From assembly GCF_022846255.1 (NCBI RefSeq), contig NZ_AP025682.1: a DNA stretch of 64,000 nucleotides. The stretch is one strand, 5' to 3'. Under the pieces are notes generated by a model. It did not search any database. It saw nothing but the letters and a program-made list of their open reading frames with translations, and was not told where the DNA came from. Source of the DNA: Escherichia coli (GTDB lineage: Bacteria; Pseudomonadota; Gammaproteobacteria; Enterobacterales; Enterobacteriaceae). Shown piece after piece: positions 19,703 through 61,097 of this stretch (position 1 is its first letter; every line of letters begins with the position of its first letter). The translations under genes were made by a program, and so were the position numbers.

Positions 19703-20653
19703 ATGAACATCAAGCCACTAAATTTATATGATGGCCCTGTAATTGATGCGCATCATCACTTCTGGGATCCGATAGAAAATGATCATCCTTGGCTAAAGCC
19801 GGATGTTTTAATTCCTTTTAGATATGGTGATTATACGGCGATTAAGAAAAAATATTATCCTGAAGATTATTTTGCAGATGTAGGTGATATTAATGTCGTT
19901 GAAACCTGTTATATGGAGACTGAATGGAATCCAGCGGATCCATGTGGTGAAAGCGATTTCATTACATCAGTAGCAAAAATGACAGGTTATCCAAATGCTG
20001 TTGTCGGACAGGCTTGGTTAAATCATGATGATATAGATTCTGTGTTGAAGATGCAGAGTTCATATGAGTTGATGCGAAGCATCAGGCATAAGCCAGAGGG
20101 GCCTGATAAACCAGAGGATGTTGGATCGTATACAACTCTGATGAGTGATGAAAGATGGCGATATGGGTATTCATTACTTTCAAAATACAATCTAATGTTT
20201 GATCTGCAAACCCAGTGGTGGAATTTGCATGAAGCTGTAAAACTGGCAAATGATTTCCCAGACACAGTAATAATCCTTAATCATACAGGGCTCCCTGCAC
20301 AACGTTCTGTTGAAGGGTTGGCCGGGTGGCATTCAGCAATGGCTTCTTTGGCTGAATGTGAAAATGTGATGGTTAAAATATCGGGTATAGGTTTAAAAGG
20401 GATTCCATGGACAGTGGAGAATAATCTATGGATAATATCTGAAACGTTATCAATGTTTGGTCCTGACAGGGTCATGTTTGCAAGTAATTTCCCCGTGGAC
20501 AGTCTTTGTGGCAGTTTCAGTGATATATTTCATGGCTTTATGACTGTTTGCGAGATGAAAGGGTATTCACATGCGGCTCAGCGGAAAATGTTTCATGACA
20601 ATTGTAAGAGAATCTATCGAACAATCCCACCAAGTGAATTGAAGGAAGTATAG
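19703..20653 (+). CDS. Amidohydrolase_2-family metal-dependent hydrolase (lactonase/decarboxylase type)
   Basis: 316-aa ORF; SD AGGAG; N-terminal DAHHHFWDP metal-binding motif typical of this family. Confidence 0.7.
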   Translation: MNIKPLNLYDGPVIDAHHHFWDPIENDHPWLKPDVLIPFRYGDYTAIKKKYYPEDYFADVGDINVVETCYMETEWNPADPCGESDFITSVAKMTGYPNAVVGQAWLNHDDIDSVLKMQSSYELMRSIRHKPEGPDKPEDVGSYTTLMSDERWRYGYSLLSKYNLMFDLQTQWWNLHEAVKLANDFPDTVIILNHTGLPAQRSVEGLAGWHSAMASLAECENVMVKISGIGLKGIPWTVENNLWIISETLSMFGPDRVMFASNFPVDSLCGSFSDIFHGFMTVCEMKGYSHAAQRKMFHDNCKRIYRTIPPSELKEV

Positions 20654-20805
20654 CTGATAATCATATTTAATGATATCTGAGGTTTATTATTGTATAACTC
20701 ATGGAAATTCATGATTCGTAAATGTGAGTTATATCTATATGCTGTTGAATAGTGATACGCAAGAAGCACATAAAAATATAACATAATAATACTCCGTAAA
20801 CATTT

Positions 20806-20834
20806 CCCCCTTTTAAAAGAGGGGGAGTTTTTAT
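20806..20834 (+). terminator. rho-independent terminator after the acid-sugar operon
   Basis: GC stem CCCCCTTTT/AAAAGAGGGGG followed by AGTTTTTATT. Confidence 0.6.
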
Positions 20835-20972
20835 TGTCATTGCTATACCATAGCTTGGAGAGGATTATTGGAATGGTAGAAGAGTCATTATGAGATAATA
20901 TTATTATCTGAGCTGGCCCCCTGAAATACCAGACAGTAGATGTATCTTAAAATAAGAGATAGGCTTGGATAT

Positions 20973-21368
20973 ATGTCTAACACTAGTTCTAATTTTGAGA
21001 TGGCTGGCGTTTTGTTAGGAAAAGAGGTGCGTAAACGTAAAACACCTCAGGAAAAAATCGCAATTATTCAACAGACTATGGAGCCGGGCATGATGGTGTC
21101 CCACGTGGCGCGTTTGCATGGAATTCAGCCCAGTCTGTTGTTTAAGTGGAAGAAACAATACCAGGAAGGAAGCCTCACTGCTGTGGCTGCCGGTGAAGAC
21201 GTTGTTCCTGCTTCTGAACTGACCGCTGCAATAAAGCAGATTAATCAGCTTCAGCGTTTACTGGGTAAGAAAACCATGGAAGTTGAGATCCTCAAAGAAG
21301 CGGTGGAGTATGCACAATCGCGAAAATGGATAGCGCATGTGCCCTTGTTACCTTCGGACAAGGAATAG
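20973..21368 (+). CDS. IS2-group transposase OrfA
   Basis: HTH OrfA homolog of IS2 InsC ([24 protein letters not shown]...). Confidence 0.75.
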
Positions 21369-22207
21369 CCCCGGTAAGCCGTGTTCTGGGCGTGTCACGT
21401 GCGCAGTTAACATTACGGATGAAGGCATCTGATAACAAGCCAGATAAACGGCGCCAGAGGCGCGATGAGGCTGCGGATGCAGAAGTCTTATCGCGCATCC
21501 TGGATATCATTGGCGATATGCCAGCATACGGGTATCGCCGTGTCTGGGCGATACTCAGGCGGCAGTCCCGAAATGAAGGACTACCGTTCGTGAATGCAAA
21601 GCGTGTTTACCGGATAATGAGCGAAAATAGTCTGTTGTTGTTACATGACAAACCATCACGACGGCAGCGGGAACATAAAGGCCGAATATCGGTGAAGGAA
21701 AGCGACCAGCGTTGGTGTTCCGATGGCTTTGAGTTCGGTTGCGATGATGGCGAAAAACTGCGTGTTACGTTCGTCCTGGACTGTTGCGATCGTGAAGCCA
21801 TAGACTGGGTCGCAAGCACGGGAGGTTACGATAAAGCGACAGTGCAGGATGTGATGTTAGGAGCGATAGAAAAACGCTTTGGCGATAAAGTACCGGAACA
21901 GTCCATCCAGTGGCTGACAGATAACGGTTCAGCGTACAGAGCGCATGAAACACGGCAGTTCGCCAGAGAGCTGAATCTGAAGCCCTGCACAACAGCAATC
22001 AGTAGCCCTCAGAGTAATGGAATGGCAGAACGGTTCGTGAAAACGATGAAGGAAGACTACATCGCGTTCATGCCGAAACCGAATGTAAGAACGGCATTGC
22101 ATAACCTTGCAGTGGCGATCGAGCATTACAATGAAAACCATCCGCATAGTGCGTTGGGTTATCGCTCTCCGCGAGAATATCGACGTCAGCGGGTAATGTT
22201 AACTTAA
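21326..22207 (+). CDS. IS2-group transposase OrfB (DDE catalytic)
   Basis: 293-aa ORF homologous to IS2 InsD; overlaps orfA in the -1 frame. Confidence 0.75.
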
Positions 22208-22311
22208 GATACAACCCCTGTCTGGAAATAAGGGGGCAAGAACACCGTCTCAGATCTGTTTTCAATGAAAACAGATCATTCTGGAACTACTCGTCCCAGT
22301 TACTTGAAGCG

Positions 22312-23397
22312 ATGTCCATTCTTCGTCCGAACGAAAATCTTGCAGCAGCTCTCAGCGATGATTCAGAGTTCAGCAATAGCATGCAGTTCAGGTTAATCCT
22401 GGCAAAGACTGTTGATGCAGGAGCCCCGGTTCCAGCGGATCTGGCTCTGACGTGGGTGACAAACCATATTGAATACTCATTACGAACCCCCGCCCGCCGC
22501 TGTGCGAAAGAATTTGCTGCACTATTTAAACGGCGTTACACCCTTAAATACGGTGAAGGGATGGTAGTGAAGCCGAATAAAGCGCGTCTGCGTTTAGATT
22601 ACACGCCTGCAAGTCCCAGTTTGAGAGGTATTCGGCTTCCTGTTCCTGACTTGCCTGATCCAAGTGCATTGAAAGGCCCTGTTCAGAAGCTTATGACTCT
22701 TGCTGATATATGCACAGATGAACTGGATGCTTACAGTCGTTACCTTGGTAGAAAAGGCACTTCAGCAAATGATACCGCTGCAATTTTGTTGCTGCCTTCA
22801 GAAATCGTTAACGAAAGCGCAGATAAATTATTAAGTGCATTCAAACGCTGGGCTGATGACGCGATCCTCAGTAAGGGGGGAGTAGTTTCAGTTGCTGACT
22901 TCTGGTCACACATGAATGCTACCTGTCCGGCAAAGATCAACAAAAAAGAGGCCGACTTGATGCAGGCCTTTGCACAGAAAATGGGGTACTGCCTGGCTCC
23001 TGACCCCTATTACCACCACGTAAAAGCAAATGTCGATGGTGTTCTTGTTTTATTCCCTGCTGGTGAAAGTGGCCGCTTCTCTCCTTCTCCTGAATTTATC
23101 ACAGCTGTATTGACGCTCCGATTAGGTTCGGTAGTCGCCTTGATTGACAATTCTTTCGATCAAGCCGAACAGAAAGTGCTTGAGAATGCCATCAACAACA
23201 ATGTCAGCTTCAGCGATGATGAAAAGCGCTCTCTGCACGCATATTTAACGTGGCAGCTTCATACCCCGGCGAATATGACGGGAATGAAAAGCCGGATTGA
23301 ATTACTCGGTGCAGCGGAAAAATCAGCTGTGGGTAAGGTTATCGTTAGTGTCGCTTGCTCTGACGGCAGAATTACGCCTGCCGAAATCAAACTGTAG
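22312..23397 (+). pseudogene. TerB-domain protein gene remnant, 3'-truncated by the IS911-like element
   Basis: 361-aa ORF; C-terminal TerB-like repeats (VALIDNSFDQAEQKVL; VSVACSDGRITPAEI); TAG stop 23395-23397 overlaps the IS left end; frame stays open upstream into the preceding IS, so the 5' end may also be lost. Confidence 0.5.
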
Positions 23398-23464
23398 TGG
23401 CACACTGAATTTGGCCACCTGAACAGAGGTGATATGCTCACCTCAGAACAACACAGGTGCTCCA

Positions 23465-24633
<1,169 letters not shown>

Positions 24634-25056
24634 CCACTACAAATATCATTATATTGGAATAATTATAAAACTGAACAAAATGGTCAATGTAATCTGGTTA
24701 ATTTATAAATATTTACATTGCGTGATGATATTTAATTCCAGTGTTAAGTAATGTCACATGCCTATTATTGGTTACTACTTTGTAGGTGTTTTGGTTCGGC
24801 GTTAATATCATTGGTCATAATCACCTGTGAAAGTTTATTCTTGAAATGTTATAGGTATATTACTTGCAATTAAAAATGAGAAATTTATTATTATTGTGTT
24901 TTGCAAATATAATAATTAAAAATTTATTATAAATTATGATTAGAACTGACAATATAAAAGAATAATAAAACTCAATATGAAAATAATTATCATCTGGTAT
25001 GATACTTTTGCTGTTGATTACAGGAATAAAGTGTCAGAATAATATTGTTATTGGGT

Positions 25057-25084
25057 AAAAAAAGCCTCCACTATATGTGGAGGC
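25057..25084 (-). terminator. hairpin GCCTCCAC-TATAT-GTGGAGGC with flanking A/T run (terminator-like, minus strand)
   Basis: Perfect 8-bp stem, 5-nt loop; AAAAAAA on plus strand gives a U-run after the stem on the minus strand; ~700 bp downstream of int. Confidence 0.45.
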
Positions 25085-25758
25085 AAACCCTTAGATAGTT
25101 CTATTGAGGCAAGTATGTTATAAATCTGCCTTATCTTTTATAGCATATAAAGATATGTATGCTATATTGTTTTTTGAAGAAATTTTTCCAGAAATTACAG
25201 TAATACAAGAAATATTAACCGGTGTGATTTTTGGATGTTTAATAAGTACAGTGTAGTGTACTTATATTTTTGTAATAAAGATGAACGCGTCCTTTAGATA
25301 AACTGAAAAATATTAAGCATGTCTCATGTGGTTTTCTGAATCAAAACTCTTTTCAGTCTTTGGTTTTTTGTTAAAAACAGGTTTATTGCAAGGGTGTTGT
25401 TGTGAAATGTGTTTTGGTGTCGTTGTGATTTTATGGTGATAATGTGAATTTTTATCCTTTCAAGATGGCTCCCTGGACGTTAAATACAGTGGAAATTTAT
25501 ATTAAGATATAAATATAACTATTGCGTTATTTAAATTATTGTCTATTACAGCTCCAGTTAATAGAGCCTGAAGTAATTTCTTAGTATTTCATCATAAGCG
25601 TTTATCTATCGTCTCTTTCTAAATTAACCGGTCGTATTACAAGGTGCTGAATCTGATTAAGGAATGATACTTAGGGGATTATGGCTGACTTAATAATTAG
25701 ATAACTGATAAATGACTATCAGGGGGATATCGTTAAGTCAGCCTTTAAAATCAAGCGA

Positions 25759-26949
25759 TTATATAGCTGGTGACTCTTTTCGAAGAGCATCAAGGTAGTC
25801 AGCGTACCATTGCATCATTTCTCGTCTTCCTTCAAGGTAACGAGCATGGTTGTATGTACCACGAATGCTGTTTTTGTCCGTATGTGCAAGTTGCATTTCA
25901 ATCCATGCACTATTGAATCCTTGCTCGTGTAGAACAGTACTCATTGTATGACGAAATCCATGCCCGGTAGCTTTTTTGTCATAGCCAATCTTCTTCAAAA
26001 CCATATTGACGCTTGCATCGCTGATAGGCCTGTTAACATCATTTCTTCCGGCAAAGATGTATCTGTATCTTCCAGTCAGTTCTTTGAGGATTTGCAGAGA
26101 CTGGATTGCCTGATCTGACAGAGGGACGATATGCTCCTTCCTCATTTTCATCCGGGTCGGAGGAACTTCCCATATCTTTTGGGTAAAATCGATCTCACAC
26201 CATTCCCCCATACGTAATTCTACTGTTCTCAGCCCTGTGAGCATCAACAATTTTGTAGCTTCACGGGTTACAATACTGCCGGTGTAGTTTTCGAGTTTGT
26301 ATAAAAACTCTGGTAGTTCAGGAGGAAGCAGGAAAGGGTAATGTGTTCGCTTATAGCTTTTCATTGCTATAACCAGATCAGAAGCTGGATTGTATCGTGC
26401 CCGACCTGTAACAATGGCATACCGAAACACTTCACCACATCGTTGGCGAACTTTATTAGCTAGCTCGCAGGCTCCTCGGCTTTCGATACGCTGAAGAACT
26501 GCGAGAAGTTCAAGAGGTTCGATTTCACTAATGGGTCTGTTTCCAATGTAGGGAAACACATTATTTTTGAATGCTCTGTCGACATAATCAGCGTAGCTGG
26601 CAGACCAGCCTGAAACTTTTGCGTTGTACCACTCGGTGGCGATTGCGGCAAAAGTTCTTCCTTCGGAAAGGTTTTTCTCAAGATTTTCAGCTTTCTTGAC
26701 TTCACCGGGATCTTTACCATCGGCATGTATTTTCTTGGCTTCATCCCGACGTTTGCGAGCTTCAGCCAATGTAATAGTTGGATAGGTGCCAAATGATAGT
26801 TTCTTTTCCTTCCCCGCATAGTGGTACTTCATTCGCCAGTACTTTGAGCCGTTAGGATTGACCTGAAGGTAGAGCCCACCACCATCGGCAATCTTATAAA
26901 TTTTATCTTTGGGTTTGGCTGTTTCAACTTGTCGAGCTGTCAGTGGCAT
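25759..26949 (-). CDS. int: P4-type tyrosine integrase (internal copy)
   Basis: ORF 25759-26976; likely start ATG 26949 (MPLTARQVETAKPKDK...) with SD GAGG; P4-family N-terminal pattern and C-terminal catalytic R...HxxR...Y region. Confidence 0.85.
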   Translation of the reverse strand: MPLTARQVETAKPKDKIYKIADGGGLYLQVNPNGSKYWRMKYHYAGKEKKLSFGTYPTITLAEARKRRDEAKKIHADGKDPGEVKKAENLEKNLSEGRTFAAIATEWYNAKVSGWSASYADYVDRAFKNNVFPYIGNRPISEIEPLELLAVLQRIESRGACELANKVRQRCGEVFRYAIVTGRARYNPASDLVIAMKSYKRTHYPFLLPPELPEFLYKLENYTGSIVTREATKLLMLTGLRTVELRMGEWCEIDFTQKIWEVPPTRMKMRKEHIVPLSDQAIQSLQILKELTGRYRYIFAGRNDVNRPISDASVNMVLKKIGYDKKATGHGFRHTMSTVLHEQGFNSAWIEMQLAHTDKNSIRGTYNHARYLEGRREMMQWYADYLDALRKESPAI

Positions 26950-27076
26950 CTGGGGGCCTCGCAATAGATTGACCAAGATGTGCCCCTAAATAGGCCCCCA
27001 AATGTGACTTGATTTACGTTCCCCTGAGGAGAATTAAGGCGACTATTTGAGTAACATAAGTAAGGGTATGTGCTGA

Positions 27077-27640
27077 TTATAAAGGCTTTTTGTGGGGTAT
27101 GGTAGATTTCAGGAGAGGTGTGCATGGTGTCCCCTGCAGAATGATGTAAACACCTGCTGCGAAGGTAATAGATTGCATGATGGAGAACATGAACCAGTTT
27201 TTACCACCACTAAGCTCTTTCACCACATCTGCACGCGCAAACAGGCACGTCACCAGGAAAATTATGCTCATGGTAAAAGAGATAGCAACCGGCGTGTCGC
27301 GCAAGAACAGCAGACTTTTCGGCACATTCATGTCTTCAGTCGAGTGGTCTTTATTACCAAACTTGCTGCCGATGAAACCGGCCAATACATAATATAATGT
27401 TGAGAAGTGGCCGATGGCAACGTCATCAGAACCGGTCACTTTCTTCATGTACGGATGCGCAATAGCCGGGAAAAAGACCATTGCCACGCCAACAACCAAA
27501 GAGCCAACGGCTATAAGCGTAATGCCGGTCATGCCTGCTGTTGCCAGAATTACCGCTACCATCATCGACATAAACAACGTGTGATGACCGGTCAGGAAGA
27601 TAAATTTCCACGGTGTGAAACGGGCAATCAGAATGTTGAT
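27077..27640 (-). pseudogene. PTS EIIC internal fragment (ascorbate/galactitol-superfamily permease; possibly sgc-derived)
   Basis: Membrane ORF fragment resembling the UlaA/SgaT-type EIIC core; no native N- or C-terminus; abuts the rpe-like fragment in opposite orientation. Confidence 0.5.
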
Positions 27641-27642
27641 AA

Positions 27643-28014
27643 CCATCAGAACCGCTGGACTATCCCTCGGAAACGTTAGCTGAGATCCGCCATACCGGCG
27701 CACGAGCCGGGCTGGCATTTAATCCGGCGACCCCAATCGACGCCTGGCAATATCTAGCGTCTGAGCTGGACGGCGTGATGGTGATGACCTGTGAGCCCGA
27801 TGGGCACGGACAGCGGTTTATTCCCTCTATGTGCGAGAAAATCCAAAAAGTACGCACGGCTTTTCCTCAGACCGAGTGCTGGGCCGACGGTGGAATTACG
27901 CTGGCGGCAGCACAGCAACTGGCTGCAGCCGGGGGGCAGCATATGGTGATTGGGCGCGTCTTGTTCTTTTCATCTGACTATCGCGCGACCTTAGCTCAAT
28001 TCGCCACCCTGTAA
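27643..28014 (+). pseudogene. ribulose-phosphate 3-epimerase-like (sgcE-type) 3' fragment
   Basis: In-frame translation ...AGLAFNPATP...PDGHGQRFIPSMCEKIQKVR...ADGGITLAAAQQLAAAGG... matches the C-terminal ~120 aa of Rpe-family proteins; N-terminal two-thirds absent. Confidence 0.7.
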
Positions 28015-28030
28015 GAGGAGATTGTTTCTG

Positions 28031-28813
28031 ATGAGCCAACAGAGACCTGACCGTATCAAACAGATGCTGCACTACCTGTGGCAACATCGTCACCTCTCCA
28101 CACAGCAGGCCATGGAGCTTTTTGGCTATGCGGAGGCGACTGTCCGTCGTGATTTTCAGTATATTGCCAACCAGTACCCAGGAATGATCCGCGGTCACGG
28201 TTGTCTCGACTTCGACGACAGTACTGACGACAAAGAGTACGTTTTCGATGTGAAACGTACATTGCAATCTGTGGCGAAGAGAGAAATAGCCGCCCTTGCC
28301 CGAACGATGATCAAAGATGGCGACTGCTTTTTTCTCGACTCCGGCTCAACCTGCCTCGAACTGGCGAAATGCCTGGCCGATGCACGGGTGAAGGTCTCCT
28401 GCAACGACATTAAAATCGCCAATGAGCTGGGCTGTTTTCCCCATGTGGAAAGCTATATTATCGGTGGACTGATTCGCCCGGGTTATTTTTCGGTAGGAGA
28501 GAGTCTGGCGCTGGAGATGATCAATGCCTTTTCCGTAGAACGTGCGTTTATCTCCTGCGATGCGCTGTCGCTGGAGACGGGGATCACCAATGCCACCATG
28601 TTTGAGGTCCGGGTGAAAACACGGATTATTCAACGCTCGCGTGAAGTTATTCTCATGGCCGAACACTCAAAATTTGATGCCGTTGAGCCGCATGCTGTAG
28701 CAACACTCTCATGTATTAAAACGATCATTAGTGACAGCGGGTTACCTGAGACTATTGCACAGCGTTATCAGCGAGCCGGATGTCAGTTGTTTTTACCTCA
28801 TTCAATAAAGTGA
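28031..28813 (+). CDS. sgcR: DeoR-family transcriptional regulator SgcR-like
   Basis: ORF with SD AAGAGGAG 10 nt upstream of ATG 28031; DeoR-type HTH and sugar-phosphate-binding C-terminal domain; resembles K-12 SgcR as recalled. Confidence 0.8.
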   Translation: MSQQRPDRIKQMLHYLWQHRHLSTQQAMELFGYAEATVRRDFQYIANQYPGMIRGHGCLDFDDSTDDKEYVFDVKRTLQSVAKREIAALARTMIKDGDCFFLDSGSTCLELAKCLADARVKVSCNDIKIANELGCFPHVESYIIGGLIRPGYFSVGESLALEMINAFSVERAFISCDALSLETGITNATMFEVRVKTRIIQRSREVILMAEHSKFDAVEPHAVATLSCIKTIISDSGLPETIAQRYQRAGCQLFLPHSIK

Positions 28814-29115
28814 TAGGTAAGTTCGTTCGAGAGGGATTTCAAGCAAAAACAATCAATGGCACCCAATAGAAAATATTGGCGATGCGCTCGAACGAATAAA
28901 GAAGCCCTATGCGCAATCCACACGCTACGATGTTGCAACAACACTCCATCTACTTTTTATTCTCATTCACTAAATGTGGCTGTTCTGGATTCATTATTCA
29001 AAGTGTGTACAAGATCACATTTAATCACTTCATTACGGTTCAGCATGCTGAACAAAGCATATTTTCCACTATGTAATGCCGATACCATTTATTCCATGAG
29101 CAAGGAGGAGCCATT

Positions 29116-29904
29116 ATGGTTCGCAAAGGGTGTAATTCATTAGTCCGTGCTGAAAAAATATTAACCCACATTGCATGGGTTGGTATGGCAAGTTATATGG
29201 AGTTATTAAATAAATTTCAGTACCCAAAAAGCAGCCTGCTTAATTTATTGAATGTAATGGTGGAGTGTGGTTTCTTAATTAAAAACAAAAACGGCTACTA
29301 TTCACTGGGAATAAAAAACTACGAATTGGGTTGTCAGGCGTTACACCGCCAAAATATATTTGAGGTGACTAAGCGGCCAATGCAGGAGTTGTCGCTGAAA
29401 AGTGGACTGGTTTGTCATCTTGGGGCGATGGAGAGCATTTCGGCTATTTATCTCGACAAGATCGAAAGTCCGGACTCTGTACCGACGAGCAAAAGCTGGA
29501 TTGGCAAAAAACTTGAGTTGCATATTACCGCGTTGGGTAAGGCATTATTAGCCTGGAAGACACGAGAAGAATTAGATTATTTTTTAGAAGCACTCACGTT
29601 AACTCCGCATACGCGCAATACATTTACCGATAAAAAATCATTTCTGGAAGAATTACAAAAAACACGCCTTCGGGGATGGGCCATAGACAACGAAGAATCA
29701 ACCTATGGTGCGGTATGTTTAAGTATGCCGGTATTCAATATGTATAACAGAGTTAACTATGCAATCTCACTTTCTGGCGATCCGGTAATTTATTCAGGAA
29801 ATAAGATAGACAGCTATCTGGAGTTGCTCCGGAAATGCACAGGGCAAATATCATATGGGCTGGGATACAGAAACGAAAATGAGCATTTACGAAAAGGAAA
29901 CTGA
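29116..29904 (+). CDS. yjhI: IclR-family regulator (YjhI-like)
   Basis: 262-aa ORF; paralogous to the IclR at 11946-12707; stop overlaps SD of the next gene. Confidence 0.8.
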
Positions 29905-29908
29905 GGTA

Positions 29909-30814
29909 ATGAAAAAATTCAGCGGCATTATTCCACCGGTATCCAGCACGTTTCATCGTGACGGAACCCTTGATAAAAAGGCAATGCGCGAAGTTGCCGA
30001 CTTCCTGATTAATAAAGGGGTTGACGGGCTGTTTTATCTGGGTACCGGTGGTGAATTTAGCCAAATGAATACAGCCCAGCGCATGGCGCTCGCCGAAGAA
30101 GCTGTAACCATTGTCGACGGGCGAGTGCCGGTATTGATTGGCATCGGTTCCCCTTCCACTGACGAAGCGGTCAAACTGGCGCAGCATGCGCAAGCCTGCG
30201 GCGCTGATGGTATCGTCGCCATCAACCCCTACTACTGGAAAGTCGCCCCACGAAATCTTGACGACTATTACCAGCAGATCGCCCGTAGTGTCACCCTACC
30301 GGTGATCCTGTACAACTTTCCGGATCTGACGGGTCAGGACTTAACCCCGGAAATCGTGACGCGTCTGGCTCTGCAAAACGAGAATATCGTTGGCATCAAA
30401 GACACCATCGACAGCGTTGGTCACTTGCGTACGATGATCAACACAGTTAAGTCAGTACGCCCGTCGTTTTCGGTATTCTGCGGTTACGATGATCATTTGC
30501 TGAATACGATGCTGCTGGGCGGCGACGGTGCGATAACCGCCAGCGCTAATTTTGCTCCGGAACTCTCCGTCGGCATCTACCGCGCCTGGCGTGAAGGCGA
30601 TCTGGCGACTGCCGCGACGCTGAATAAAAAACTACTACAACTGCCCGCTATTTACGCCCTCGAAACACCGTTTGTCTCACTGATCAAATACAGCATGCAG
30701 TGTGTCGGGCTGCCTGTAGAGACATATTGCTTACCACCGATTCTTGAAGTTTCAGAAGAAGCCAAAGAAAAAGTCCGCGCACTGCTGTCCGCGCAAGGTA
30801 TTTTATCGGACTGA
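29909..30814 (+). CDS. yjhH: DapA-family 2-keto-3-deoxy-pentonate (xylonate-pathway) aldolase YjhH-like
   Basis: Start ATG 29909 (MKKFSGIIPPV...) with SD GAGG; GTGGEFSQ, NFPDLTGQD, GIKDT motifs. Confidence 0.85.
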   Translation: MKKFSGIIPPVSSTFHRDGTLDKKAMREVADFLINKGVDGLFYLGTGGEFSQMNTAQRMALAEEAVTIVDGRVPVLIGIGSPSTDEAVKLAQHAQACGADGIVAINPYYWKVAPRNLDDYYQQIARSVTLPVILYNFPDLTGQDLTPEIVTRLALQNENIVGIKDTIDSVGHLRTMINTVKSVRPSFSVFCGYDDHLLNTMLLGGDGAITASANFAPELSVGIYRAWREGDLATAATLNKKLLQLPAIYALETPFVSLIKYSMQCVGLPVETYCLPPILEVSEEAKEKVRALLSAQGILSD

Positions 30815-30824
30815 GGAGAGGATC

Positions 30825-32792
30825 ATGTCTGTTCGCCATATTTTTGCTGACGAAAGTCGCGATATCTACACCGTCAGAACCCACGCAGATGGCCCTGACG
30901 GAGAACTGCCTCTGACGGCGGAAATGCTCATCAACCGCCCGAGTGGGGATCTGTTCGGGATGACCATGAATGCCGGAATGGGCTGGTCTCCGGACGAGCT
31001 GGATCGGGACTGTATTCTACTGCTCAGCACACTGGGAGGGGTACGCGGGGCAGACGGTAAGCCCATCGCGCTGGCGTTGCATCAGGGCCACTACGAGCTG
31101 GATATCCAGATGAAAGCGGCTGCGGAGGTAATCAAAGCGAACCGTGTCCTGCCCTATGCCGTCTATGTTTCCGATCCGTGCGACGGACGAACTCAGGGTA
31201 CGACGGGTATGTTTGACTCGCTACCGTACCGTAATGACGCCGCCATGGTGATGCGTCGTCTTATCCGCTCTCTGCCCGATGCAAAAGCCGTCATAGGCGT
31301 GGCGAGCTGCGACAAGGGACTTCCGGCCACCATGATGGCGCTTGCCGCGCAGCATAACAAAGCGACGGTGCTGGTGCCCGGTGGCGCGACTCTACCCGCA
31401 GGGGATGGGGAAGATAACGGCAAGGTGCAGACCATCGGTGCCCGCTTCGCCAATGGCGAGTTATCACTACATGATGCCCGCCGTGCGGGTTGTAAAGCCT
31501 GTGCCTCCTCCGGCGGCGGCTGCCAATTTCTGGGCACCGCCGGGACATCACAGGTAGTAGCTGAAGGATTAGGACTGGCTATCCCGCACTCAGCACTGGC
31601 CCCATCCGGCGAACCGGTGTGGCAGGAGATAGCCAGAGCCTCCGCGAAGGCGGCGTTGAACTTATGTAAACAAGGCATCACCACCCGGGAAATACTTACC
31701 GATAAAGCGATTGAGAATGCGATGACGGTCCATGCGGCGTTCGGTGGTTCAACAAATCTGTTGCTGCATATTCCGGCGATTGCCCATCAGGCCGGCTGCC
31801 ATATTCCAACCGTTGACGACTGGATCCGCATCAACAAGCGGGTGCCCCGACTGGTAAGCGTACTCCCCAATGGTCCGGTTTATCACCCGACAGTGAATGC
31901 CTTCATGGCGGGAGGTGTGCCGGAGGTGATGCTGCATCTTCGTAGTCTGGGATTGCTGCATGAAGACGTGATGACGGTCACCGGCAGCACGCTGAAAGAA
32001 AACCTGGACTGGTGGGAGCATTCCGAACGGCGTCAGCGGTTCAAACAGCTTCTGCGCGAACAGGAGCAGATCGATGCCGACGAGGTGATCATGTCGCCAC
32101 AGCGGGCACGGGAGCGCGGCCTGACCTCAACGATCACTTTCCCGGTGGGCAATATTGCCCCGGAAGGGTCGGTTATCAAATCCACCGCCATCGATCCCTC
32201 GGTGATTGATGATCGGGGCATCTATTACCATAAAGGCGTGGCGAAGGTTTATCTGTCCGAGAAAAGCGCGATTTACGATATCAAGCACGAGAAGATTAAA
32301 GCGGGCGATATTCTGGTCATCATCGGCGTTGGCCCTTCCGGCACCGGGATGGAGGAAACCTACCAGGTCACCAGCGCCCTGAAACATCTGTCCTATGGCA
32401 AGCATGTTTCACTGATCACCGATGCGCGTTTCTCGGGTGTTTCCACGGGAGCCTGTATCGGCCACACAGGGCCAGAAGCACTGGCCGGAGGGCCAATCGG
32501 TAAATTACGCACCGGAGATATTATTGAAATTAAAATTGATTGTCGCGAGCTTCAGGGCGAAGTCAATTTCCTCGGAACCCGTAACGATGAAACATTACCC
32601 TCACGGGAGGAGGCCACCGCAATATTAAACGCCCGACCCAGTCATCAGGATTTACTTCCTGATCCTGAACTGCCAGATGATACCCGACTCTGGGCGATGC
32701 TCCAGGCGGTAAGCGGCGGGACATGGACGGGTTGTATTTATGATGTAAATAAAATCCGCACGGCCTTGCGCGATTATATGAATAAAAACTGA
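30825..32792 (+). CDS. yjhG: IlvD/EDD-family dehydratase (D-xylonate dehydratase YjhG-like)
   Basis: Start ATG 30825 (MSVRHIFADE...) with SD GAGGAGAG; ~655 aa; IlvD/EDD signature with Cys-rich cluster (CDGRTQG, SCDKGLPA). Confidence 0.85.
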   Translation: MSVRHIFADESRDIYTVRTHADGPDGELPLTAEMLINRPSGDLFGMTMNAGMGWSPDELDRDCILLLSTLGGVRGADGKPIALALHQGHYELDIQMKAAAEVIKANRVLPYAVYVSDPCDGRTQGTTGMFDSLPYRNDAAMVMRRLIRSLPDAKAVIGVASCDKGLPATMMALAAQHNKATVLVPGGATLPAGDGEDNGKVQTIGARFANGELSLHDARRAGCKACASSGGGCQFLGTAGTSQVVAEGLGLAIPHSALAPSGEPVWQEIARASAKAALNLCKQGITTREILTDKAIENAMTVHAAFGGSTNLLLHIPAIAHQAGCHIPTVDDWIRINKRVPRLVSVLPNGPVYHPTVNAFMAGGVPEVMLHLRSLGLLHEDVMTVTGSTLKENLDWWEHSERRQRFKQLLREQEQIDADEVIMSPQRARERGLTSTITFPVGNIAPEGSVIKSTAIDPSVIDDRGIYYHKGVAKVYLSEKSAIYDIKHEKIKAGDILVIIGVGPSGTGMEETYQVTSALKHLSYGKHVSLITDARFSGVSTGACIGHTGPEALAGGPIGKLRTGDIIEIKIDCRELQGEVNFLGTRNDETLPSREEATAILNARPSHQDLLPDPELPDDTRLWAMLQAVSGGTWTGCIYDVNKIRTALRDYMNKN

Positions 32793-32898
32793 AAGCAAAA
32801 ATAAAAATATCCAGACGCCTGAATTATCCGGTTACGCATTATTCATCCTGTGCGCAGCCGGATAATGACGGCTCGTTACCCTATAATGAGAGGACGTT

Positions 32899-34248
32899 AT
32901 GCCACTAATTATCGTTGTGGCAGGGATTGCTTTACTCCTGCTTTTAACCATAAAAATTAAGCTTAATACGTTTGTTTCGTTAATTATTGTCTCGATTGCT
33001 GTCGCCATCGCCAGTGGTATGGATTTGAGTAAAGTCGTCACCTCAGTCGAATCCGGACTTGGCGGTACGCTGGGCCATATTGGTTTGATATTTGGCTTCG
33101 GTGTTATGCTCGGTCGCTTGCTGGCCGATGCGGGGGGGGCGCAGCGAATAGCGCTGACCATGCTGAATTATTTCGGGAAAAATAAACTTGACTGGGCAGT
33201 GGTCTGTTCGGCGTTTATTGTCGGTATCGCACTTTTTTTCGAAGTCGGTTTAATTCTTCTGGTACCTATTTTATTCGCTATTGCCCGTGAAGCAAAAATA
33301 TCACCGATGTTTATGTGTGTGCCGATGCTTTCCGGTTTGCTGGTCGCACACGGTTTTTTGCCGCCGCACCCCGGCCCGACAGTAATCGCCAGAGAATATG
33401 GTGCTGATGTAGGATTGGTACTGATATACGGTATCATTGTCGGCATTCCAACCTTTATTCTTTGCGGCCCGGTATTGAATAAATTCTGCCAGCGCATTAT
33501 TCCGGAAGCCTTTAAAAAAGAGGGGAATATAGCCTCTCTCGGCGCGACCCGCCGGTTCAGCGAAAGCGAAATGCCTGGCTTTGGGATCAGTTTTCTCACG
33601 GCAATGCTGCCGGTGATCCTGATGGCGGTTGTCACCATCATCCAGATGACTCATGCCAAAAGTGCCGCGGATTCAGGCTTATTCTACAACGTGCTACTGT
33701 TCTTAGGTAATTCGACGATCGCCATGCTGATTTCACTGCTGTTCGCGATCTATACCATGGGCCTGGGGCGCGGGAAAACAATCCCTGACCTGATGGATTC
33801 TTGCGGAAAAGCTATCGCGGGTATTGCCGGTCTGCTGCTGATTATCGGTGGTGGTGGTGCATTCAAGCAAGTTCTCATCGACTCTGGCGTTGGTCAGTAT
33901 ATTTCCACCCTGGTTTCGGGTATGGATATTAACCCGATCCTGATGGCCTGGGGCGTGGCCGCATTCCTGCGTATTTGTCTGGGTTCAGCCACCGTCGCGG
34001 CGATCTCTACCGCCGGTCTGGTCATCCCATTGTTGGCAGTACATCCCAATACCAACCTGGCCTTGATTACGCTGGCTACCGGTGCCGGATCCTGTATTTG
34101 TTCTCACGTTAACGATGCCAGTTTCTGGATGATTAAAGACTTTTTTGGCCTGACCACCAAAGAAACGCTGTTATCCTGGACGCTGATGTCCACACTCTTA
34201 TCCATCAGTGGGCTGATTTTTATTCTGCTCACCAGCTTAGTTTTATAA
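32899..34248 (+). CDS. yjhF: GntP-family permease (YjhF-like)
   Basis: 449-aa polytopic ORF; SD GAGAGGA; GntP motifs ([20 protein letters not shown]). Confidence 0.85.
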
Positions 34249-59561: not shown

Positions 59562-60824
59562 TTATTTTAATGGATTATTAATCTTTGCATATTCAAATGG
59601 ACTGATAAATCTTTCTCTATTTGCATCCAGAAAATCGGCCCACCATTGTAGCATCAGTCGACGTTCTTCCAGATGTTCTGCTTTATGAATGTAAGCAGCA
59701 CGTACACCATTACGCTCCTGATGGCTCATCTGACGTTCCACAGCATCGCGGGACCACAAACCTGATTCAATCAATGCACTGCACGCCATCGCCCGGAATC
59801 CATGGCCACAGACTTCCTGGGTTGTGTCATATCCCATAACCCTCAGGGCTTTATTTACGGTATTTTCGCTGATTGGTTTACGTGGGTCATGTGCCCCCGT
59901 AAAGATCAGACCATTTTCACCAGCCCATGTCTGAAGTTCTGTCAGTATGGCTACAGCCTGTTTGCTGAGTGGCACAAGATGTGGTGTTCGCATCTTGGAG
60001 CCTCGGTGTGAGAATTTTACGCCTGGCAGAGGTTCGCGTTCGGCTGGAATAGTCCACATGGCATTGTCAATATCAATTTCAGACCAGCGGGCATATCTGA
60101 GTTCACTGGAACGAATAAAAACCAGTAAATTCAGCATAACTGCCCGTCGGGTGACAGGCTGGCCTTTATAACCGCCAATACGCGACAGAAGTTCAGGCAG
60201 ACGTGAAAGATCCAGAGCTGGGCGATGCTGGCGTTTTACCGTAGTCAATGCACCAGCCATATCCAGAGCCGGGTTATATCTGATGATGCCAGACTGTACG
60301 GCATAACGCATTACAGCAGATATTCTTTGCTGCAGACGACTGGCGATTTCATAAATTTGTTTAGCTTCTGCAGCACGAACAGGGATAAGCAGGTCCGGGG
60401 TACTGAGTGTTGTGATATCCCGGTTGCCGATAAAGGGGAATACGTGTGTCTCGAGGCTTTTGAGTACTTTATCGCTGTGTGATTGTGCCCATTGTTTATT
60501 ACTGGCATGCCAGCGTCGTGCAATATGTTCAAAAGAGAGCTGTAAATCAGGGACTACTTTTTTAGCTCTTTTCTGTTCGCAAGGGTCAATCCCCTCCGAA
60601 ATCAGTTTTCGGGCCTCATCCCGTTTTGTACGAGCTTCGGAGAGAGAAACTTCTGGATACACACCAAGTGCCAGAGTCTTCTCCTTACCCAGAATACGAT
60701 AACGGAGACGCCAGTAACGGGAACCATTAGGATGAACCAGCAGGAACATGCCGGCCCCGTCAGTGAGTTTATAAGCCTTGTCAGTGGGCTTTGCAGCCCG
60801 GATTTTTGCGTCAGTCAGCGCCAT
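59562..60824 (-). CDS. int: P4-type tyrosine integrase adjacent to tRNA-Phe
   Basis: 420-aa ORF; SD AAGG; P4-family N-terminus (MALTDAKIRAAKPTDKAYKLTDGAGMFLLVHPNGSRYWRLRY) and C-terminal catalytic region; tRNA upstream on the same strand. Confidence 0.9.
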   Translation of the reverse strand: MALTDAKIRAAKPTDKAYKLTDGAGMFLLVHPNGSRYWRLRYRILGKEKTLALGVYPEVSLSEARTKRDEARKLISEGIDPCEQKRAKKVVPDLQLSFEHIARRWHASNKQWAQSHSDKVLKSLETHVFPFIGNRDITTLSTPDLLIPVRAAEAKQIYEIASRLQQRISAVMRYAVQSGIIRYNPALDMAGALTTVKRQHRPALDLSRLPELLSRIGGYKGQPVTRRAVMLNLLVFIRSSELRYARWSEIDIDNAMWTIPAEREPLPGVKFSHRGSKMRTPHLVPLSKQAVAILTELQTWAGENGLIFTGAHDPRKPISENTVNKALRVMGYDTTQEVCGHGFRAMACSALIESGLWSRDAVERQMSHQERNGVRAAYIHKAEHLEERRLMLQWWADFLDANRERFISPFEYAKINNPLK

Positions 60825-60978
60825 AGTTCAGCCTTCTGAATGCGTTAAAGAGGGTACAAATTCTGTCGAACTGGGGTATACCCGCAATTATACCCACACA
60901 ATGGGGTTGATGTGGGGGGAATCTGGTTGAGTTCGGTAGAATTGATTTGTAGGTAGAACGCTTAAATTGTGGCGTTCT

Positions 60979-61010
60979 GAAACGAAAAACGGACCTCCGT
61001 GGAGGTCCGT
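60979..61010 (-). terminator. rho-independent terminator 3' of tRNA-Phe
   Basis: Minus strand: stem CGGACCT / AGGTCCG followed by TTTTTCGTTTC, 11 nt after the tRNA 3' end. Confidence 0.6.
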
Positions 61011-61021
61011 TGATATGAATT

Positions 61022-61097
61022 TGGTGCCCGGACTCGGAATCGAACCAAGGACACGGGGATTTTCAATCCCCTGCTCTACCGACTGAGCTATCCGGGC
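61022..61097 (-). tRNA. pheV: tRNA-Phe (anticodon GAA)
   Basis: Reverse complement reads GCCCGGATAGCTCAGTCGGTAGAGCAGGGGATTGAAAATCCCCGTGTCCTTGGTTCGATTCCGAGTCCGGGCACCA, the E. coli tRNA-Phe sequence incl. CCA; pheV copy inferred from flanking yqgA-speC. Confidence 0.95.

Follow-up and report, generated by a model that had tools for sequence, protein, structure and literature searches.

Putative arm-type integrase-binding sites in an inverted repeat at the start codon of a P4-like integrase gene

An inverted repeat lies across the ribosome-binding site and start codon of an integrase gene, int, in the Escherichia coli DNA analysed here (64,000 nucleotides, hereafter called the window). A first-pass annotation had read this repeat as a hairpin in the int mRNA which could occlude translation initiation, and the question raised by the locus is whether its two arms are an RNA element or sites on the DNA. 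As judged by alignment with related loci, the repeat was shown to be homologous to the arm-type repeats of the P4/IntS family, and it very probably consists of putative arm-type Int-binding sites in the P′ arm of the attL of an integrative element of this family. The features of the locus are listed in Table 1.

Table 1 Features of the int start and the adjoining attL arm in the window (−, minus strand; +, plus strand)
Feature	Sequence	Position	Strand	Remarks
int, P4-like tyrosine recombinase, 396 aa		25759-26949	−	ORF; ATG at 26949
Inverted arm-type copy	CATCTGGGGGCC	26947-26958	+	int strand reads GGCCCCCAGATG; corresponds to hairpin 3′ arm
DR2, P′ arm-type repeat 2 (putative)	TATTTAGGGGCA	26981-26992	−	Tandem direct copy, 12 nt after DR1
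DR1, P′ arm-type repeat 1 (putative)	CATTTGGGGGCC	26993-27004	−	Corresponds to hairpin 5′ arm; includes GGCCCCCA
CGTAAATCAAG block	CGTAAATCAAG	27013-27023	−	Position of the TTGAAA/TTGACA −35 element of relatives; degenerate here
Conserved A/T-rich block	CCCCACAAAAAGCCTTTATAATCAGCAC	27070-27097	−	TATAAT at 27076-27081, −132 from ATG
att core remnant, tRNA-Arg 3′ end	...CTGCAGGGGACACCA	27124-27142	−	Homology to argW-linked islands ends at 27142

The integrase gene and its attachment site

The predicted Int protein contains the Pfam domains PF13356 (Arm-DNA-bind_3, residues 3-88, E = 3.7e-28), PF22022 (Phage_int_M) and PF00589 (Phage_integrase), and is 44 % identical to the Int of P4 (E = 4e-114). 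The gene and its upstream region share 99.9 % DNA identity with argW-associated copies in 264 complete E. coli genomes, which adjoin the tRNA-Arg gene, argW, beside yfdC; the island integrase was found in approximately 5 % of complete E. coli genomes. Homology to the argW islands stops within the tRNA 3′ end, and the region 26949-27142 is therefore taken as the attL arm of the island, with the tRNA-Arg 3′ remnant as its predicted boundary. The usual upstream neighbour of int is the tRNA gene, in the same direction; in the window it is a truncated PTS gene on the same strand.

In FDAARGOS_536 (NZ_CP033762), no second tRNA-Arg core was present up to 50 kb from the argW island. P-arm copies belonging to the element in the window were not found either, the far end of the element lying beyond the window, and the relatives from IMG/VR were all in the integrated form, with P-arm copies absent within 1.2 kb. 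The window contains a second integrase gene, beside tRNA-Phe (ATG at 60824), which has its own set of repeats with the motif GGGTATA. The far end of this tRNA-Phe island is likewise outside the window.

The inverted repeat and its conservation in related loci

By inspection of the sequence, TGGGGGCC (26951-26958) and GGCCCCCA (26993-27000) match perfectly as the 8-bp arms of an inverted repeat and are separated by 34 nt, just as the first-pass annotation had described it. The plus strand over the repeat reads ...ggcat ctgggggcct cgcaatagat tgaccaagat gtgcccctaa ataggccccc aaatgtgact..., and in a repeat search the arms could be extended to 18 nt with 83 % complementarity (26942-26959 and 26992-27009). 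An 8-bp inverted repeat is in itself common and does not exceed chance: the window held 140 perfect 8-bp seeds with a spacer of at most 40 nt, compared with approximately 39 in mononucleotide shuffles. Three of the 140 seeds had at least 7/8 G+C (0.25 expected), and GGGGGCC occurs only six times on both strands of the 64 kb, two of these occurrences being at the int start repeat. A chance origin of this particular repeat was ruled out by its conservation in homologous loci, which is the decisive evidence.

Both arms are copies of one 12-nt motif, of which there are three at the locus, with a consensus of approximately 12 bp, (C/T)AT(T/C)TGGGGGCC. The two direct copies are 12 bp apart, approximately one helical turn, and the third copy is inverted and placed on the int start codon, the int ATG being the reverse complement of the cat at 26947-26949. 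This inverted copy also overlaps the GG of the Shine-Dalgarno sequence (GAGG, 26957-26960). DR2 is degenerate in the window (AGGGGCA), and no tandem copies of the GGGGGCC type were found elsewhere in the 64-kb window. The repeats, at 26947-27004, lie between the tRNA-Arg 3′ fragment (27124-27142) and the int coding region, approximately 120-180 bp from the crossover core at the tRNA-Arg 3′ end.

The same arrangement is found in P4, in which TTGGGGGCATAA and TTGGGGGCATCT are followed, after a gap of 16 nt, by ATGTGCCCCCAA immediately before the ATG. The GenBank record of P4 (NC_001609) labels these three sites 'attP arm sequence repeat', and labels two more such repeats across the core (4151-4174) and one within int. 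All six occurrences of GGGGGCA in the 11.6-kb P4 genome are at annotated arm repeats. In a five-way alignment P4 and the window corresponded block by block from the core to the ATG, with DR1 aligned with the P4 repeat at 3954-3965, DR2 with that at 3942-3953 and the inverted copy with the inverted repeat immediately next to the ATG of P4 int (3915-3926). The repeat thus did not hold up as a free-standing RNA element, its arms being copies of a DNA motif homologous to the attP arm repeats of P4. By analogy with the family, Int would be the protein that binds them.

The int locus of the window and 76 related loci of other species were aligned from −150 to +60 around the int ATG. The layout was kept and its sequence was variable: two direct copies 12 nt apart are followed, approximately 20 nt further on, by an inverted copy which ends at the ATG. 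With strict automatic criteria this layout was recognised in 49 of 79 related loci; when the criteria were loosened and viral contigs included, 57 of 97 distinct loci had it. In these 57 loci the first direct copy was at approximately −53 (DR1 at approximately −55 to −44), the second at approximately −41 and the end of the inverted copy between −5 and +3 of the ATG. The 12-nt spacing of DR1 and DR2 was present in nearly all relatives.

The motif itself is specific to the lineage, with direct and inverted forms such as GGGGGCC/GGCCCCC, GGGGGCAT/ATGCCCCC, GGGGGTAT/ATACCCCC, TGTATAG/CTATACA, GCGGGCAT/ATGCCCAC and ACGGTAT/ATACCGT, and also GGGTAAA. At least seven motif classes were distinguished, and all copies of one locus change class together. 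These comparisons show the P4 layout of arm repeats, two direct copies and an inverted copy on the int ATG, to be general across the P4/IntS family, with lineage-specific motifs. In several relatives, and also at the second integrase of the window, the inverted copy is 12-33 nt upstream of the start codon, so that it does not cover the ribosome-binding site, and in one class of viral contigs (L127-L161) the copy nearest the ATG is in direct orientation.

RNA folding, promoters and alternative readings

In many relatives (P4, L009, L036, L041, L054-57 and L069-73) the promoter scan identified a promoter with TTGAAA or TTGACA, a spacer of 18 nt and the 3′ half of DR1 as the −10 element. This promoter type was unrecognisable in the sub-family of the window, which has CGTAAA and then CCTATT (alignments and promoter scan), and a consensus promoter scan found no match of at least 9/12 on the int strand between 26950 and 27140. 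The TATAAT at −132 is accompanied by a weak −35 element. The A/T-rich block in which it lies is kept in the window, in L002-L006, L013 and others, and has the form CCCTTTAAAATCA in P4; it may serve as the −10 element of a promoter or as a bending site of the IHF type. An IHF site is reported for the int regulatory region of P4 (PMC7286903). The fit of the IHF consensus WATCAANNNNTTR to the conserved TTTATAATCAG block was only partial, as compared by eye.

The promoter of the relatives predicts a transcription start inside DR2, which agrees with the start of KplE1 intS, mapped 28-29 nt before the ATG (PMC2951348). The KplE1 intS mRNA therefore does not carry the 5′ arm of the hairpin, and neither would an mRNA from any promoter of the relatives' type.

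In the mechanism that the family suggests, the N-terminal arm-binding domain of Int would occupy the three sites and its catalytic domain the core, giving a recombination complex. Bound Int would also repress its own gene, since the sites extend over the promoter and the start of int. In KplE1, the IntS system of which is closely related to that of Sf6, the arm-type attL sites of the P′ arm have been mapped and assigned to IntS, P′1 overlaps the −10 element (Panis et al. 2010, PMC2951348), and repression of intS by IntS has been demonstrated experimentally (PMC2951348). P4 Int represses Pint via DNA binding, according to the summaries of Piazzolla (2006) in PMC2951348 and PMC7286903. Autorepression of int in the window is less certain than the identity of the sites, because the promoter which they overlap is degenerate here.

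The minus-strand RNA of the int start contains a stem of 13 bp, CAUUUGGGGGCCU / AGGCCCCCAGAUG, with one G-U pair. The claim that the 3′ arm overlaps the Shine-Dalgarno sequence was correct, the stem taking in the AGG of GAGG and the AUG as well. Folding of the 5′ UTR, which had been proposed as the check on the hairpin, favoured it: the minimum free energy (MFE) of an 81-nt segment was −31.3 kcal/mol, with an identical centroid structure (z = −3.24, none of 200 shuffles folding as well), and the stem was retained in a 231-nt context. Of the 41 ORFs in the window with 200 aa or more, int had the most stable translation start (−29.8, compared with a median of −11.7). The AUG was paired with a probability above 0.99 when the 5′ end of the RNA was at or upstream of −56 (P(unpaired) 0.002-0.005), and 73-99 % unpaired in RNA starting at −32 or −25. 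In these models the effect of the hairpin depends wholly on the position of the transcription start, and the predicted hairpin would silence translation only on transcripts which start upstream of 27005. Such a block on longer transcripts may apply in the window, because the usual promoter looks degenerate. Occlusion of int translation, as proposed in the first-pass annotation, is thus physically possible and the hairpin is the favoured fold, but occlusion is not the best explanation of the repeat. The RNA hairpin is probably a by-product of the layout of the sites, since one copy of the motif is inverted.

One possibility is that the Int-binding sites have a dual use, their inverted layout also insulating int translation from upstream read-through. 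Read-through transcripts from the tRNA or a host gene would carry both arms and be silent, whereas transcripts from the promoter of int itself would start inside DR2 and be translatable. The geometry of the relatives fits, with the −10 element in DR1, the predicted or measured start in DR2 and the inverted copy at the ATG, and int is usually directly downstream of a tRNA gene in the same direction (of the truncated PTS gene in the window). In 36 representative loci the mean P(unpaired) of positions −3 to +3 was 0.40 in RNA from −100, compared with 0.64 in RNA from −30, and 29 of the 36 loci were less accessible in the longer RNA; the corresponding values for the window were 0.00 and 0.51. This difference is built into the layout of the sites and is therefore not independent evidence. 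Occlusion was weak in many relatives (P(unpaired) 0.4-0.7 in long RNA), in the exceptions described above the copy near the ATG is either displaced from it or direct, and RNA-specific covariation, considered below, did not appear. A dual use of the sites is rated as quite unlikely. If it were true, the hairpin would act as the main brake on int expression in the window, where the internal promoter looks degenerate.

It is quite improbable that the RNA hairpin is the main role of the repeat, hiding the Shine-Dalgarno sequence and the AUG in the 5′ UTR and so limiting int translation. This reading draws on the fold itself, which is both MFE and centroid, on the very low accessibility of the AUG in RNA starting at or upstream of −56, and on the int start being the most structured among the 41 long ORFs. 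In the sub-family of the window the stretch from DR1 to the ATG offers no good promoter; transcription of int may therefore begin further upstream, giving RNA with both arms, and the hairpin would be present in any RNA that reads through from the truncated PTS gene, which has the same orientation. Control after transcription, as reported for int of P4, also fits: the summaries of Piazzolla (2006) in the citing papers PMC2951348 and PMC7286903 state that the P4 excisionase Vis acts post-transcriptionally. The sense RNA folded better than the antisense RNA by 2.0 kcal/mol on average (78 loci, with 53 negative and 23 positive differences), but this bias is uninformative because the sense strand is G-rich.

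An RNA role leaves the second direct copy, at its helical spacing, without explanation, and in P4, phiEt88 and Sf6 further copies lie across the core, where pairing with the int mRNA is impossible. When covariation was compared in 34 sequence clusters, DR1 and DR2 matched the inverted copy at 9.4 and 8.9 of 12 positions and each other at 8.9 of 12. The 194 mismatches comprised 50 G-U, 34 A-C and 110 pairing-breaking combinations, with no clear bias towards G-U, and no RNA-specific covariation beyond the shared DNA motif was found in the 34 clusters. The relatives with a free ribosome-binding site and the class with a direct copy at the ATG (L127-L161) argue against the hairpin in the same way, as does the start of KplE1 intS downstream of the position of the 5′ arm (PMC2951348). 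An Rfam scan of 20000-34000 (E ≤ 1) gave nothing at the int start site. An intrinsic terminator was considered separately and rejected, since CCACUGACAGC, which comes after the stem, contains no run of U, and the terminator scan was empty here.

That the repeats bind a protein other than Int, e.g. an excisionase (a directionality factor of the Vis/TorI type) or a host factor, is highly improbable. In favour of such a protein, directionality factors usually recognise direct repeats spaced by one turn of the helix (PMC7498355), and both P4 Vis and KplE1 TorI are described in the literature as acting on the int regulatory region. Against it, the homologous P4 repeats are annotated as arm repeats, the P′ sites of KplE1 have been attributed to IntS and differ from those of TorI (PMC2951348), the presence of the motif in both arms, one copy being inverted, is characteristic of arm-type sites, and the motif tracks the integrase lineage.

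With arm-type Int-binding sites as the preferred reading, the significance of the locus beyond its annotation is small. The architecture of attL, i.e. the core, the arm sites and the int start, is fixed for an argW-type island integrase which had been uncharacterised. The locus is also a caution for genome scans, in that an inverted repeat at the start of an integrase gene will usually be a set of protein-binding sites and not an RNA switch. A dual use, if true, would provide the island with a simple device which insulates int from read-through of a strongly transcribed tRNA gene.

Comparison with known systems

The locus resembles the 5′ UTR hairpins which sequester ribosome-binding sites in having a stable predicted stem that pairs both the Shine-Dalgarno sequence and the AUG. 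It differs from them in the absence of RNA-specific covariation and of an Rfam family, and in that its arms are explained as putative protein-binding sites.

The integrase of lambda is heterobivalent, its arm-binding domain being separate, and several arm-type sites flank the core, as in the P4/IntS family. A further likeness is the bend site which probably lies between the arm sites and the core, the P′ arm of lambda consisting of the H′ IHF site followed by P′1-P′2-P′3. The P′ sites of lambda differ in being all direct and clear of the int start, the lambda integrase is only distantly related, and lambda int is controlled by PI/PL and sib retroregulation, unlike int in the window.

KplE1 (CPS-53), HK620 and Sf6 are closer. 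They share the argW core TGCAGGGGACACCA, their integrases are approximately 48 % identical to Int of the window, and they have direct and inverted arm-type copies, the last one at the ATG (Sf6). The motif is GGGTAAAA rather than the GGGGGCC of the window, there are four P′ copies compared with three in the window, and a consensus-like promoter (TTGACA / TAAAAA), absent in the window, is present. In the intact phages phiEt88 and Sf6, the integrases of which are 49 % identical to Int of the window and which have the same TGCAGGGGACA core, the motif is TGCGGGCATA and GGGTAAAA, respectively. Each has two direct copies in the P arm, and two direct and two inverted copies in the P′ arm, the last inverted copy being at the ATG.

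The closest description of the locus is provided by P4. Both integrases belong to the same family, with the 44 % identity given above and the same three domains, and the order of elements is the same: a tRNA-derived core, an A/T block, two tandem 12-bp direct repeats and an inverted copy at the int ATG. P4 and the window also share the G5C core of their motifs, TTGGGGGCAT and TTTGGGGGCC, respectively. The differences are that the core derives from tRNA-Leu in P4 and from tRNA-Arg in the window, that the 3′ half of the motif is CAT in P4 and CC in the window, where DR2 is degenerate, and that the TTGAAA ... CATAAT promoter which overlaps DR1 in P4 is unrecognisable in the window. P4 is a satellite phage with P-arm copies, whereas the element in the window is a decayed genomic island for which such copies were not found. 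The attP arm repeats of P4 are reportedly credited to Pierson and Kahn, in 1987. The layout of the P4 arm repeats by int has been known for decades, and the window is another instance of it, not a new type.

The island, its junction and its decay

The island is not located at tRNA-Arg in the window; its attL end, the arm running from the att core remnant to int, is joined to a truncated gene for a PTS ascorbate-type IIC component. The 8-bp sequence CCCTGCAG is present both in the tRNA-Arg 3' end and in the intact IIC gene, precisely at the junction. The arrangement looks as if the integrase had inserted the island at a secondary attachment site. Among 5,426 complete E. coli genomes, not one has this junction, and the rest of the IIC gene (its 3' part) is missing from the 64-kb window.

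An IS3-family transposase ORF follows int in the window. In an argW-linked copy of the island (beside tRNA-Arg in another E. coli genome), fragments of IS3 and IS66 are found on that side of int, together with a PapB/FocB remnant. The island is thus decayed, and its far end has probably been lost.

Features of the window with their positions and strands
Feature	Position	Strand	Remarks
Two alike sequences, TCTG..ATTCAGGGGGGCCAGTCTAG and TCTGGTATTTCAGGGGGCCAGCTCAG	3700-3740 and 20885-20925	minus	
IS3-family transposase ORF	23794-24633 and 24640-25750 region		directly downstream of int
Conserved block AAAAAGCCTTTATAATCAG	27070-27097		~45 nt from core; also in homologous loci
Truncated PTS ascorbate-type IIC gene (sgcC-like)	from 27132 upward	minus	fused to island attL end
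Island/IIC junction	27133-27140, within 27124-27142		8-bp CCCTGCAG common to both partners
Second P4-like integrase	59600-61097 region, ATG at 60824	minus	adjoins tRNA-Phe
Inverted arm-type repeats, second integrase	60852 and 60874		
Direct arm-type repeats (GGGTATA), second integrase	about 60883-60897		
tRNA-Phe	61022-61097		beside second P4-like integrase

Arm-type repeats at other integrase genes

At the second P4-like integrase of the window, the last inverted copy lies approximately 27 nt upstream of the start codon and does not cover the ribosome-binding site, a normal GAAGG. A class of IMG/VR viral contigs (L127-L161) has the motif CGGGTAC, which includes the palindrome GGTACC, at positions -40 to -1 from the int ATG. 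The copy abutting the ATG (GCGGGTACCT-ATG) is direct, not inverted, and a predicted promoter (TTGCAA, 18-nt spacer, CATAAT) overlaps the first copy of the motif.

Two of the occurrences of GGGGGCC, the core of the arm-type motif, outside the int site of the window are within TCTG..ATTCAGGGGGGCCAGTCTAG and TCTGGTATTTCAGGGGGCCAGCTCAG; these may be insertion sequence ends and appear to have no relation to the int site.

Conserved sequences between the core and the repeats

Upstream of the direct repeats, many relatives have TCAAC/TCTAC-like words approximately 11 nt apart, which might be excisionase sites. The block AAAAAGCCTTTATAATCAG could be either a -10 element or a bend site of the IHF type; it is also common to many relatives, and its counterpart in phage P4 is CCCTTTAAAATCA.
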